In this document: one piece after another, positions 14,944 to 51,154 of the stretch | Numbering within the stretch: the stretch's first letter is position 1 | Layout of the letters: each line of letters begins with the position of its first letter | Assembly: GCA_964548275.1 (NCBI GenBank) | Contig: CAZJQI010000004.1 | Location: forward strand, 13,149 to 77,148 | Length of the DNA stretch: 64,000 nt | Source: an uncultured Gemmatimonadales bacterium | GTDB lineage: Bacteria; Gemmatimonadota; Glassbacteria; GWA2-58-10 | Direction of reading: 5' to 3' | Notes under the pieces: model-generated | Databases searched by the model: none | What the model was told of the DNA's origin: nothing | What the model saw: the letters and a program-made list of their open reading frames with translations, nothing else | Program-made: the position numbers and the translations under genes

Positions 14944-14976
14944 CCCCGGAAATGAACTTTCCGGGGATTTTTTTAA
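14944..14976 (+). terminator. Rho-independent terminator after frr
   Basis: Hairpin ccccggaaa/tttccgggg followed by a T7 run. Confidence 0.7.
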
Positions 14977-17894: not shown

Positions 17895-17963
17895 AAAAAG
17901 CCGCTGGATACCTTGAAGGGATAATCTCTGGAGAAGTTCTACCGGTGATTTAAGGAACTTCGA

Positions 17964-17992
17964 GGGCGAGGAATGCCTTGCCCTTTTTGTTT
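17964..17992 (+). terminator. Hairpin gggcgagg-aatg-ccttgccc plus T-run after dxr
   Basis: It has an 8 bp stem with one G-T wobble and the tail tttttgttt. The same core element recurs at 35079. Confidence 0.5.
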
Positions 17993-21045: not shown

Positions 21046-21122
<77 letters not shown>

Positions 21123-23931: not shown

Positions 23932-25179
23932 TCAGAAAGCTGACTTGACCAGGGAGGATTTACGCTGTTCGATCAGCTGGATGAACCGGCGGAAAAGGTA
24001 CCAGCTGTCGTGGGGCCCCGCACTCGATTCCGGGTGATGCTGCACGGAGAAAACAGGCCTCTTCTTGTGCCGGAAACCCTCGATTGTCTGGTCGTTGAGG
24101 TTTATGTGGGTCACCTCGAGATCAGCACACCCGTCGATCTGCCATTGCCCGTTCTCATCCTTGCTCCCCTTGATACAAAATCCATGGTTTTGAGTGGTAA
24201 TCTCTATTTTGCCAGTAGCGAGATTCATCACCGGGTGGTTGGCCCCGCGGTGACCGAATTTCAGCTTGAAACTCTCACCCCCGAAAGCAAGGCCAAGAAT
24301 CTGGTGTCCAAGGCATATGCCGAAAATCGGAAGATCGGGCAGCTGCTCGACTATATCCTTGACTGTCTGTTTGAGATAGGGCACCCCCTCCGGGTCTCCC
24401 GGACCGTTGGAGAGAAAGAGCCCGTCAGGGTTGAGGCTCAGAATTTCGGCGCTGCTGTAAGAAGCCGGAACCACAATTATCTTGCAGTCGAAATAAGAGA
24501 GGATCCGCAGTATGTTGAATTTGATTCCGCAGTCGATAGCCACCACGTAGTGTTTTCCGCTGTTGCCGCCCGGCTCCCGGGTCATGAGATCCTCGGGCCT
24601 GTCAGCAGTATAGATATAATAGTCTGCGGGCGATTCAGGTTCGGTGCCAGGACGGAAAATGTAACTTTTCTCGATAGTGACATTTTTTACCAGGTCCCGG
24701 CCGATAAGCCCCGGGTACTTGTAAAGCTTGTTCATCAATGATTCGTAGTTAAAATCGGCGGTGGAGATAATACCTTTCATTGCGCCCTTTTCCCTGATAT
24801 GAAGGGTGAGCGCCCGCGTATCGATTCTCTCGATTCCAACAACCCCTGCCTCACGAAGATATTCATCCAGGCTTTGGGTTGCCCGCCAGTTGGAGTGGTG
24901 GGCAGCATTCTCCCGCACGATAAATCCCTCGACCTGGATTCTCGAGCTTTCGATATCAGTCGGATTGATCCCCGTGTTGCCGATATGCGGGTAGGTCATT
25001 GTAACAATTTGACCATTGTAGGACGGATCGCAGAGTATCTCCTGGTAGCCGGTCATACTGGTATTGAAAACCACTTCGCCGATAGCCTCGCCCTCAGCCC
25101 CGAAAGAGTTGCCCTGGAACGTACGGCCGTCCTCGATAACAAGCACGGCGCGCTTCCCTTGTCTCTTGCCTCTAGACAT
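23932..25179 (-). CDS. carA: Carbamoyl-phosphate synthase small (glutaminase) subunit
   Basis: CPSase small-chain N-domain joined to a class I glutamine amidotransferase domain (GICLGHQ). Confidence 0.95.
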   Translation of the reverse strand: MSRGKRQGKRAVLVIEDGRTFQGNSFGAEGEAIGEVVFNTSMTGYQEILCDPSYNGQIVTMTYPHIGNTGINPTDIESSRIQVEGFIVRENAAHHSNWRATQSLDEYLREAGVVGIERIDTRALTLHIREKGAMKGIISTADFNYESLMNKLYKYPGLIGRDLVKNVTIEKSYIFRPGTEPESPADYYIYTADRPEDLMTREPGGNSGKHYVVAIDCGIKFNILRILSYFDCKIIVVPASYSSAEILSLNPDGLFLSNGPGDPEGVPYLKQTVKDIVEQLPDLPIFGICLGHQILGLAFGGESFKLKFGHRGANHPVMNLATGKIEITTQNHGFCIKGSKDENGQWQIDGCADLEVTHINLNDQTIEGFRHKKRPVFSVQHHPESSAGPHDSWYLFRRFIQLIEQRKSSLVKSAF

Positions 25180-25542
25180 AAATTATCGTTTTGTCCTAAA
25201 ATCGGGCCTTTGAGTTAACAGATGAGAAGAAAATTTAAATTCAAAAAAATATAAGTAGTTAAATGCTTGCGGTCAATATCTTTAAACGCTACAAAAAGTG
25301 CTAAGATCCAGTAACTTATTAATTTAAAGGATACTAAACAACTAAGCTTTTGATTGCTTTCTTGATATGGCCCAGAAGCGATTTGGTCTAGTATTGGTAA
25401 AGATGAGCGCAGCGTTTTGTAAGTATCTAAATTAGAGATGATAAGCCATACATCGGGGCAAGGCCACTGGAAACTAATAGCGGCGCTTTCAAGCTGTTTT
25501 ACTGCCGGAGGCGCTATTCGTAAGAATGTCTTTAAGTTTTTC

Positions 25543-25571
25543 TTGACAATGCCTTTGTATATCTATATAGT
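25543..25571 (+). promoter_or_regulatory. Candidate sigma70 promoter (TTGACA-17-TATAGT) about 540 nt upstream of ilvB
   Basis: ttgaca at 25543-25548, a 17 nt spacer, and tatagt at 25566-25571. Confidence 0.4.
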
Positions 25572-25633
25572 AAAAAACTCAATAAACACTCTGAGTCGGC
25601 AGCAGCTTTCGTTTATTCGAGGATTATGGCAGA

Positions 25634-25801
25634 ATGATTTATAACCTCTTACAGCTATCCTCTCCACACGCCTTACTCCGGCGCTTCAGCCTGATGCAGA
25701 GTACACGTCTATCTACTGCTTTGATTCTTTTGAGCATTTTGATTATTCTTCCCGTATCTTTGGGGGAAGGCTCCGGCTTGATTATAATAGGCCTACAATA
25801 G
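25634..25801 (+). promoter_or_regulatory. Candidate ilv leader-peptide ORF (55 aa, Leu/Ile-rich), possible attenuator
   Basis: Hand-translated sequence: MIYNLLQLSSPHALLRRFSLMQSTRLSTALILLSILIILPVSLGEGSGLIIIGLQ. It has 13 Leu, 8 Ile and 1 Val. A GAGG lies 14 nt upstream of the start. It sits in the long leader upstream of ilvB. Confidence 0.25.
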
Positions 25802-26112
25802 CCGCGAGCCCGTTCCCCCGATCAGCTTTAAATTTCTGAATCAATATATGCTTAGTCTGGGGAACTGGCCGGCCCGGTGCGGCTCTTGGTGCATTCATTT
25901 TGCGTTTTGAGGTAAAAATAGATTGAGAGATTAATATAGACGCAATGATTAATAACATTAAATTTATACATGACTTCACCATGTAAATATTAGCCTGCTG
26001 ATACTGGAATTTTTCCCGTCGGTGAATTTCAACCGTTCGGAGAACAGAAGGGAAACCGGTTCTCATGGCGGAGCCGCCGGCTTAATACCAACCATATACT
26101 GGAGATAGGGCT

Positions 26113-27837
26113 ATGCAGATAGTCAAGGAAAAGGAATCAGGCGCGAAAGTGAAAGCCGGAAAAAAAGAGCGGCTTTCTGGCTCTGAGATACTTATACGCT
26201 CCCTGATAAAAGAGAATGTCGACCACGTTTTTGGCTATCCTGGAGGTGTGGTAATCCCTGTTTTCGATAAGCTGTACAACTGCCCCAGGCCTAAGATCGT
26301 GCTCTGCCGACACGAGCAAGGCGCCCAGCATATGGCGGACGGCTACGCGCGAGCCTCCGGCAAAACAGGTGTTTGCCTTGTAACTTCAGGACCTGGAGCC
26401 ACCAACCTGGTTACCGGCATTGCCACCTCTTTCATGGACTCGATACCTGTAGTGTGTATCACCGGCCAGGTGGCCAGGGCCGCTATCGGCAATGATGCAT
26501 TCCAGGAGGTGGATATTGCCGGCATTACCCGTCCAATCACCAAGCACAGCTACCTGGTTCGGGATGTCGCGGATCTGGCCAGCACAGTCAAGGAGGCTTT
26601 CTTCATCGCTTCCACCGGTAGACCGGGCCCAGTGCTGATTGATATTCCCAAGGATGTGTTCCTTTCGGAATCGGTTTTCGAGTACCCTGATACTGTTGAC
26701 GTCCCGGGTTACAAACCTACAGAGCACGGGCACATTCAGCAGATCAAAAAGGCGGCAGAGGCGATAGCACAGGCTAAAAGGCCGGTTCTCTATGTTGGTG
26801 GGGGATGTATTTCTTCGAATTCCTCAGCCGAGCTGACTGAACTCGCTTACAAGGCCGGGATACCGGTCACAACCACCTTGCTCGGGCTCGGTGCTTTCCC
26901 GGAGGATGATCCGCTCTCTCTGGGGATGCTTGGGATGCACGGCACCTGGTATGCGAATATGGCGGTCAACGAAAGCGACCTGCTGATTGCTGTGGGCTCC
27001 CGTTTCGATGACCGGGTTACCGGCAAGCTCGATGCGTTCGCCCCAAAAGCCAGTGTGATCCATATAGATGTGGACCCGGCCTCGATCAGTAAGAATATCA
27101 AGGTGGACTATCCAATCGTGGGTGACTGTAAAAAAGTGCTAAAAACACTTCTGCCCTTGACAAAAAAGGCAGATACAGCAGACTGGCTCAGCATGATCCA
27201 CCACTGGAAAAAAACTCACCCTCTCAAGTACAATAAAAGCGAGAGTATCAAACCGCAGTATGTTATCGAGTCAATCCACAAGGTTTGCGGTGATGATACA
27301 GTTGTTTCAACTGATGTCGGCCAGCACCAGATGTGGGTCGCTCTGCACTATAAGTTTCTCAAACCGCGCACTCTTATGACCTCAGGCGGGCTGGGAACCA
27401 TGGGCTTCGGTTTTCCGGCGGCAATCGGCGCGGCCCTGGCTTCACCGGACAGAAAAGTGGTTGCCATAGTTGGTGACGGCGGCTTCCAGATGACCGTGCA
27501 GGAGGTTGCCACAGCCGTATCCGAGCGGCTCAACGTGATTGTGGCAATATTAAACAACGGATTCCTAGGCATGGTCCGACAGTGGCAGGAACTGTTTTTC
27601 GGCAAGCGCTATAGCCATACCTGCCTCGAATTTACGAACCCTGATTTTGTCAAGCTGGTCGAAGCTTATGGGGCAAAGGGAATGAGAGTCGAAAAACACG
27701 ACAAGGTGGTTCCGGTGCTCGAAAAGGCTATGAAAGTGAAAAATTGCCCGGTATTCATCGACTTTCACATTGACCGCCATGAAAACGTTTACCCGATGAT
27801 TCCGCCCGGTAAAATGGCCACGGATATTATCGAATAA
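26113..27837 (+). CDS. ilvB: Acetolactate synthase large subunit (ThDP-dependent)
   Basis: Three TPP_enzyme domains. It has a GDG...NN ThDP motif region. It is followed by a small ACT-domain subunit. Confidence 0.95.
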   Translation: MQIVKEKESGAKVKAGKKERLSGSEILIRSLIKENVDHVFGYPGGVVIPVFDKLYNCPRPKIVLCRHEQGAQHMADGYARASGKTGVCLVTSGPGATNLVTGIATSFMDSIPVVCITGQVARAAIGNDAFQEVDIAGITRPITKHSYLVRDVADLASTVKEAFFIASTGRPGPVLIDIPKDVFLSESVFEYPDTVDVPGYKPTEHGHIQQIKKAAEAIAQAKRPVLYVGGGCISSNSSAELTELAYKAGIPVTTTLLGLGAFPEDDPLSLGMLGMHGTWYANMAVNESDLLIAVGSRFDDRVTGKLDAFAPKASVIHIDVDPASISKNIKVDYPIVGDCKKVLKTLLPLTKKADTADWLSMIHHWKKTHPLKYNKSESIKPQYVIESIHKVCGDDTVVSTDVGQHQMWVALHYKFLKPRTLMTSGGLGTMGFGFPAAIGAALASPDRKVVAIVGDGGFQMTVQEVATAVSERLNVIVAILNNGFLGMVRQWQELFFGKRYSHTCLEFTNPDFVKLVEAYGAKGMRVEKHDKVVPVLEKAMKVKNCPVFIDFHIDRHENVYPMIPPGKMATDIIE

Positions 27838-51077: not shown

Positions 51078-51154
51078 GGGGTCGTAGTTCAGATGGTTAG
51101 AACGCCGGCCTGTCAAGCCGGAGGTCGCGAGTTCGAGTCTCGTCGGCCCCGCCA
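51078..51154 (+). tRNA. tRNA-Asp (anticodon GUC)
   Basis: Cloverleaf with anticodon loop CTGTCAA. It is highly similar to E. coli tRNA-Asp. CCA is encoded. Confidence 0.9.

Follow-up and report, generated by a model that had tools for sequence, protein, structure and literature searches.

Leader-peptide attenuation of branched-chain amino acid (BCAA) operons is textbook knowledge in Proteobacteria and is also documented in Actinobacteria and Firmicutes. In the ilvGMEDA (ilvL) and ilvBN (ivbL) operons of E. coli and Salmonella, a short open reading frame (ORF) dense in Leu, Ile and Val codons is situated in the operon leader and overlaps the first of several mutually exclusive hairpins. An element of the same layout is reported here from a 64,000 nucleotide (nt) stretch of DNA of an uncultured Gemmatimonadales bacterium; this whole stretch is termed the window. 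The element is found in the spacer between the divergent carA and ilvB genes and consists of a promoter, a 55-codon upstream ORF (uORF) rich in Leu and Ile codons, and a set of alternative RNA pairings, followed by the ilvBNC-leuA operon. An earlier note on this DNA had proposed BCAA leader-peptide attenuation from the layout. The conserved uORF, three exclusive pairings and a cassette tied to the ilv operon support this proposal, and a ribosome-mediated transcription attenuator that answers charged Leu, Ile and Val tRNA is the favoured reading, with a probability of roughly 0.7.

The ilvL peptide, MTALLRVISLVVISVVVIIIPPCGAALGRGKA, displays a hydrophobic run and then Pro and Gly, and is similar in character to the uORF peptide. 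However, there is no sequence homology to ilvL or ivbL, and neither a Pfam leader family nor an Rfam family is matched here. The peptide is also longer, with 48–57 codons in the window and related lineages compared with 32 in ilvL. Unlike in ilvL and ivbL, the stop codon lies past segment 1 and borders directly on segment 2, the loop of the 2:3 hairpin measures 35–45 nt, the terminator in the window is non-canonical, and 311 nt more precede ilvB.

The E. coli trp attenuator provides a second comparison. It shares with the window leader three exclusive pairings, a segment 1 that is part of the ORF, regulatory codons shortly before the stop codon, and a stop codon placed such that a terminating ribosome occludes segment 2. 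It differs in the amino acids sensed, in its much shorter ORF, and in having no extra codon run upstream of segment 1; in addition, the 3:4 hairpin of the window is not directly 5′ of the U-tract. In tnaC, mgtL/mgtA and corL/corA, translation of a uORF selects between leader structures and the output is Rho-dependent, with no need of an intrinsic terminator. Unlike in these systems, inspection by eye identified no rut candidate here.

Conserved uORFs with Ile/Val/Leu runs are also found upstream of ilvBNC in Actinobacteria, where the Corynebacterium ilvB-II motif and the Mycobacterium and Streptomyces candidates come from comparative genomics (PMC1262725, PMC10272879, PMC11857589). The window leader resembles these, but it belongs to another phylum and the sequences are unrelated. 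In S. coelicolor, mutating the codons that were candidates for regulation was without effect (PMC1262725). Thus the layout alone is no proof of the mechanism.

Conservation of the promoter and the leader reading frame

Relatives of the locus were collected by a protein search with IlvB, graded from 97% to 73% identity, and their contigs were compared. Ten lineages are represented (the window with L167, L172, L168, L170, L174, L181, L175, L179, L177, L180), and the closest named IlvB relatives in the protein search are Candidatus Glassbacteria. Loci that have the same IlvB as the window (L081–L086) carry an identical leader except for one mismatch in L084 and are uninformative. IlvB scans of public genome and metagenome contig collections yielded only relatives of 60% identity or less, and neither blastn nor a motif search showed leader-like sequence in the flanks of these 166 loci. 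Thus the element appears restricted to a Glassbacteria-like clade.

The order of the parts is the same in all ten lineages: CTTGACA-17-TATAxT, an ORF of 48–57 codons, the hairpins and the ilv operon, with the cassette directly 5′ of the operon and co-oriented with it in every case (Table 1). The promoter proposed in the earlier note, TTGACA-17-TATAGT, is present. A promoter scan is not significant by itself, as it gave 3 sites in the region and chance would give 2.4. However, in 10/10 lineages CTTGACA and the TATA of the −10 hexamer are invariant at a spacing of 17 nt, in contrast to their variable flanks; the −10 hexamer as a whole reads TATA(C/G/T)T. Transcription is predicted to start near position 25578. 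The uORF begins 62 nt past the −10 hexamer, in agreement with the approximately 60 nt given earlier, and the GAGG noted upstream of it is part of a GAGGA. An (A/G)AGGA sequence is found 5′ of the uORF start in every lineage, at a spacing of about 4–13 nt, mostly 10–13 nt and 4 nt in L175; carA displays a comparably long Shine-Dalgarno spacing.

The uORF peptide contains 15 Leu, 8 Ile and 1 Val, such that 24 of the 55 codons specify Leu, Ile or Val. The 8 Ile agree with the earlier count, but Leu had been given as 13. The two runs pointed out in it, LILLSILIIL and LIIIGL, are both there. Leu, Ile and Val together form 44% of the uORF. Their share is 24% in 30 gene-like window ORFs and 20 ± 7% in 177 small ORFs taken from all six frames, and the uORF is the only ATG ORF of 20–80 amino acids (aa) in the 64-kb window that reaches at least 40%. 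Pfam (IlvB_leader and IlvGEDA_leader) and NCBIfam leader-peptide profiles gave no match to the window peptide and chance-level matches only to its relatives.

A peptide core, S-x-L-[IV]-x-L-x-[IL]-L-I-I-[LIV], is common to all lineages, so that the comparison with orthologous leaders shows a conserved small ORF with BCAA codons, as the earlier note had envisaged. In the window the main Leu/Ile run contains TTGATTATT, which is conserved at the nt level. The core is followed by a Gly-x-Gly stretch, a second Leu/Ile/Val patch and the stop codon. The second patch appears as LIIIGL, LILLG, IIVGI, VVAV or LLGLIL, with a weaker version in L175 and L179. The window uORF has few Val codons; they are frequent in L170, L174 and L181. 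The N-terminal halves of the leader peptides are highly diverged.

Comparison of the window with L172 or L168 gives, for ilvB, a proportion of synonymous differences (pS) of 0.37–0.41 and of nonsynonymous differences (pN) of 0.05. Codons 2–28 of the uORF show a pS of 0.45–0.48 and a pN of about 0.20, and pN/pS between close pairs is about 0.4–0.6 for the uORF, with values of 0.2–0.6 in its N-terminal half. The 5′ half of the uORF thus appears to evolve as weakly constrained translated sequence. For codons 29–54, pS is 0.09–0.12, approximately four times below that of ilvB, which argues for constraint on the RNA or the codons of the 3′ half.

Codon choice is biased as well. Of the Leu codons in the ten uORFs 40% are TTG, compared with 8% in the neighbouring ilvB genes (Fisher p = 4e-14), and of the Ile codons 60% are ATT, compared with 26% in ilvB (Fisher p = 9e-9). 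These p-values overstate independence because the lineages are related; the bias is nonetheless seen in each lineage. It also holds in L175, a lineage of 63% G+C whose ilvB has zero TTG codons. Attenuators are known to favour certain codons in their regulatory run.

A different reading of the conserved ORF is that it encodes a functional small hydrophobic (membrane) protein co-transcribed with ilv, the hairpins being ordinary mRNA structure or the terminator of a small gene. Conservation of the hydrophobic core agrees with this, as does a pN/pS below 1 in the N-terminal half. The window and L174/L181 also share Q-S-T-R-[IL]-S although the codons differ synonymously. The length of 48–57 aa exceeds that of classical leader peptides, and gene callers predict the ORF in four cases. 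However, the hydrophobic run spans about 15 residues and is broken by Pro and Gly-Glu-Gly, and the Gly-x-Gly stretch coincides with RNA segment A and changes with it (GEGS, GNGN, GIG). The fourfold stronger synonymous constraint of the 3′ half, the rare-codon preference that is kept even in GC-rich lineages, and the invariable position of the ORF immediately 5′ of a co-oriented ilv operon all speak against a small protein. When 1.84 billion proteins were searched exhaustively with a profile, only 4 small relatives were retrieved, all with an ILII..SLVG.GSG core, and Pfam and NCBIfam searches were without a match. A small membrane protein fits these data less well than an attenuator and is considered quite improbable.

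Gene calls over the leader also include a 229-aa predicted protein in the GC-rich L177/L178 (L177 2779–3468). It has no Pfam match and spans the promoter, the uORF and the hairpins. The prediction looks like a spurious call over the leader.

Table 1. Positions of the leader elements and neighbouring features in the window
Feature	Position	Strand	Remarks
ilv leader promoter, TTGACA-17-TATAGT	25543..25571	+	11/12 consensus positions; invariant bases in 10 lineages
Shine-Dalgarno-like GAGGA	25619..25623	+	10 nt 5′ of the uORF ATG
Leader peptide ORF, 55 codons, MIYNLLQLSSPHALLRRFSLMQSTRLSTALILLSILIILPVSLGEGSGLIIIGLQ	25634..25801	+	ORF of 48–57 codons in 10 lineages
Main Leu/Ile run, codons 30–43, LILLSILIILPVSL	25721..25762	+	Leu/Ile/Val in 11/14 codons
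Segment 0, CTTCCC	25748..25753	+	inside the main Leu/Ile run; able to pair with segment A
Segment A (segment 1), GGGGGAAGGCTCCGGCT	25761..25777	+	in the ORF, codons L43–G48; pairs with B
Second Leu/Ile patch, LIIIGL	25778..25795	+	2–7 codons 5′ of the stop; Leu/Ile/Val-rich equivalents in most lineages
Segment B (segment 2), AGCCGCGAGCCCGTTCCCCC	25800..25819	+	begins within the stop codon; pairs with A or C
Segment C (segment 3), CTGGGGAACTGGCCGGCCC	25857..25875	+	pairs with B (candidate antiterminator) or D
Hairpin C:D (3:4), ACTGG-CCGGC-CCGGT	25864..25878	+	excludes B:C
Weak hairpin TGCGGCTCTTGGTGCA, then U-rich tract TTCATTTTGCGTTTTG (25894–25909)	25879..25909	+	presumed termination zone
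Conserved structured stretch, GTCGGT...GCCGGC closing helix	26019..26090	+	RNAalifold, 4 sequences: 22 pairs, 5 changed on both sides
ilvB (acetolactate synthase large subunit)	26113..27837	+	first gene of ilvB-ilvN-ilvC-leuA/cimA
Promoter-like site for divergent carA, TTGACC-17-TATATT	25248..25276	-	10/12 consensus positions; outside the ilv leader
carA (carbamoyl-phosphate synthase small subunit)	start 25179	-

Alternative pairings at the 3′ end of the uORF

The pairings A:B, B:C and C:D have the 1:2, 2:3 and 3:4 topology of an attenuator, in which segment 1 belongs to the ORF and segment 2 adjoins the stop codon. They share nucleotides and are thus mutually exclusive. In the window the A:B duplex has an energy of −30.6 kcal/mol, which is reached by 0/200 shuffles, and the B:C duplex −25.2 kcal/mol, reached by 1/200. 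Across the lineages A:B ranges from −17 to −31 kcal/mol (values reached by at most 10/200 shuffles in any lineage) and B:C from −20 to −28 kcal/mol (at most 2/200).

Partners of segment B were searched by sliding a 19-nt frame over the whole transcribed leader, which gives about 200 upstream positions. The best upstream partner of B is A in 9/10 lineages, with −30.6 kcal/mol in the window compared with −11.5 for the runner-up, and the best downstream partner is C in 10/10. The geometry is fixed as well. The spacing from A to B is exactly 50 nt in 8/10 lineages, the TCCC of B lies 8–15 nt past the stop codon, and C is situated 45–51 nt beyond B.

Complementarity is kept despite sequence change, e.g. 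GGCTC:GAGCC in the window, GGCTTG:CAAGCC in L177 and CGGTA:TACCG in L179, and L174 displays an extended CTCGGTC...GGCCGAG complementarity. A hairpin of 4–8 bp equivalent to C:D is found in all lineages, mostly sharing nucleotides with the B:C helix, and one of its positions shows C-G, U-A and U.G variants. Inspection by eye shows compensatory differences in A:B and C:D and also in the regions that flank B:C, with too few independent lineages for statistics. Folding for alternative hairpins, as proposed earlier, therefore gives three mutually exclusive structures of fixed geometry in ten lineages; neither the uORF nor any of the pairings, whose absence from relatives had been named as an argument against attenuation, is missing from a single lineage.

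The 553-nt leader as a whole does not fold into an unusually stable structure (z = −1.0), and global folding is therefore not useful here. A further hairpin, 0:A, appears in the unconstrained folds of most lineages at an energy the same as that of shuffles. When the ribosome footprint is masked, the folds give near-degenerate alternatives that do not discriminate the productive stall sites.

The ordinary stability of the whole leader is one of two observations that agree with an incidental origin of both ORF and hairpins, in an AT-rich, T-skewed spacer where ilv would be controlled only by a DNA-binding protein at the promoter. The other is the composition of the region, which is T-rich (AT skew −0.23 to −0.26) and thereby favours Leu, Ile and Phe codons. 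However, the ORF stays open in ten lineages despite a heavily diverged N-terminal half, its stop codon is fixed in position relative to B, and nearly all lineages have A:B and B:C as their best pairings. The Leu+Ile+Val content is unique in the window, and the GC-rich L175, L177 and L180 keep both the peptide core and the codons. Coincidence of this kind is regarded as extremely improbable.

Presumed termination zone and proposed mechanism

The proposed mechanism is modelled on the trp, ilv and leu attenuators, with stall geometry taken from the standard ribosome footprint. The predicted course is as follows. Transcription would begin at the conserved promoter, near 25578, and a ribosome would translate the 55-codon leader ORF, the 3′ half of which harbours segment A and a dense set of Leu and Ile codons, mostly the rare TTG and ATT. 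When BCAA are scarce, the ribosome would linger on the codons that flank A (L43, L49–I52, L54), cover A and free B. Free B would pair with C, this putative antiterminator would block C:D, and RNA polymerase would read into ilvB. When BCAA are plentiful, the ribosome would proceed to the stop codon and keep the 5′ half of B from pairing; with C:D formed, transcription would end at the U-rich tract about 90–100 nt past the stop codon. Without translation, A:B would form and C:D would again be allowed. The productive stall sites, termination of transcription as the output, and the response to BCAA are predictions of this model.

The terminator and antiterminator expected in the earlier note are only partly borne out. 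B:C and C:D are both present, but a canonical terminator is not evident in the window and is seen only in L170. In that lineage C:D extends to CTCGGGGAACTGGGCAGGCCCAGTCAACGGG, which is followed by AG and then TTTTTT and has an energy of −14.7 kcal/mol. Hairpins that contain C and close beside a U-tract are also found in L177, L172 and L179, at −12 to −15 kcal/mol. The U-tract lies 83–104 nt past the stop codon in 6 lineages.

Several observations weigh against the attenuator. The best hairpin ahead of the window U-tract has only −4.3 kcal/mol and a consensus scan found no intrinsic terminator there, while canonical terminators exist elsewhere in the genome, e.g. at 14944–14966 and 17962–17985. 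The terminator varies among the lineages, and L174, L181 and L180 lack an evident one. The best-conserved Leu/Ile run (codons 30–39) lies 5′ of A, and a ribosome stalled there would leave A free and favour termination in a four-segment model. The leader peptide is 2–4 times the classical length and its N-terminal half is under weak purifying selection. RNAalifold returns a consensus hairpin that consists of the B:C core only; this core is invariant with 0 compensatory pairs and therefore gives no covariation, and about 6 independent lineages are too few for a formal covariation statistic. Finally, a further 311 nt with a conserved structured stretch separate the attenuator from ilvB in the window clade.

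In an alternative reading, the uORF would sense the same amino acids with a non-classical output, i.e. Rho-dependent termination, RNA processing, or a D:E hairpin at the U-tract, and a stall on codons 30–39 would be productive through a five-segment relay of 0:A, A:B, B:C, C:D and D:E. The window lacks a canonical terminator although the genome uses such terminators elsewhere, the main run that includes these codons is the best-conserved part of the peptide, and most lineages form 0:A when folded without constraints. A small hairpin of the window clade, D:E, overlaps the 3′ arm of D and precedes the U-tract; it reads GGTGC...GCATT, and GGTGT...ACATC in L168, which is one compensatory change. 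For actinobacterial leader peptides without obvious terminators, a role of Rho has been proposed (PMC1262725). However, 0:A energies are no different from those of shuffles, D:E is very weak and none is found beyond the window clade, and the leader sequences show by eye no C-rich, G-poor candidate for rut. In agreement with the four-segment scheme, it is the C region that pairs with the arm beside the U-tract in L170, L177, L179 and L172. A non-classical output of this type is considered unlikely.

The 0:A hairpin may still resolve the problem posed by codons 30–39, as a pause hairpin or as a relay step. A broader departure from the classical scheme would combine the longer relay (0:A to D:E), a two-patch peptide of 48–57 codons and a non-canonical or Rho-dependent output, perhaps with a second role of the peptide as a membrane peptide or nascent-chain effector; this is a rather doubtful possibility, entertained tentatively. 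The classical attenuator remains the favoured reading, and its probability is set at the value given above because of the weak terminator, the run upstream of A, the 311-nt spacer and the derivation of the whole scheme from sequence.

The locus in related lineages, the remaining spacer and significance

The gene that follows the leader differs among lineages. ilvB is first in the window clade and in L177/L180, at a distance of 193–318 nt from the leader, and in the window ilvN, ilvC and a leuA/cimA-type gene come after it. ilvD is first in L170, L174, L175, L179 and L181, where the order is leader, ilvD, ilvB, ilvN, ilvC, leuA, ilvE. Since ilvD lies between the leader and ilvB in these five lineages only, it was gained or lost at this point. 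The ilvB ribosome-binding region, CCA(C)CATA..TGGRGAT, is alike across lineages as judged by eye. No homology of the 311-nt spacer of the window to the ilvD-ilvB spacers of the relatives was found by blastn.

Upstream of the leader, L181/L182 have an MNT/HepT toxin-antitoxin pair (L181 1–300) in place of carA. The same two loci carry a 76-aa PD-(D/E)XK (PF13366) gene inserted between the leader hairpins and ilvD (L181 1097–1327). The IlvB of L170/L171 (P0008), 81% identical to that of the window, is labelled as from an 'archaeon' metagenome-assembled genome at NCBI. The promoter of this locus is of the bacterial sigma-70 type and, like the leader, is the same as in the Glassbacteria loci; the label is probably a binning or labelling error.

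The carA/ilvB divergent spacer of the window extends from 25180 to 26112 (933 bp) and has about 40% G+C, compared with about 53% in the flanking genes. The earlier note had described all of this as a 930-bp leader. The ilv leader proper is approximately 535 nt, all of it 3′ of the ilv promoter, because the first ~360 bp lie upstream of that promoter on the carA side. The further leader of about 310 nt given for the segment before ilvB is close to the 311 nt measured from the uORF stop codon. No T-box had been seen, and a permissive Rfam search likewise shows none: cmscan in E-value mode over 24000–27500 gave 3 chance-level matches only (E of at least 2.6), with no leader family and no T-box.

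In the window clade, the conserved structured stretch listed in Table 1 is situated about 25 nt 5′ of the Shine-Dalgarno sequence of ilvB; it displays A-U/G-C swaps in L172 and L168. It may form a second regulatory element. The idea of a CodY-box or palindromic operator at 26010–26040 was set aside for lack of support. On the carA side, both hexamers of the promoter-like site are kept in the alignment with L168.

Two other ORFs in the spacer were rejected. A 68-aa ORF over the promoter (25438–25644) is without conservation. A 94-aa minus-strand ORF (25782–26066) changes its reading frame between the window and L168 and is missing from other lineages, and is probably not a gene; its counterpart is called as a 90-aa gene in L168 (2580–2852), and the frame is open in close relatives. 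Elsewhere in the window are found a plus-strand promoter that matches the consensus perfectly (TTGACA-16-TATAAT, 1090–1117), a tRNA-Met (CAT) on the minus strand at 21046–21122, and a tRNA-Asp (GTC) on the plus strand at 51078–51154.

The element overturns no current view. It is unrelated in sequence to known leaders and is matched by no Rfam, Pfam or NCBIfam family. If the attenuator reading is correct, the element would extend BCAA leader-peptide attenuation to Glassbacteria, an uncultivated and poorly studied candidate phylum. It supplies a cis-regulatory annotation for an 'empty' spacer of 933 bp, and the presence of the leader ORF explains the hypothetical protein of 54–55 aa that gene callers occasionally place there. 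With its two patches, the unusually long leader peptide may help to examine how sensitivity is tuned by the number and position of regulatory codons.

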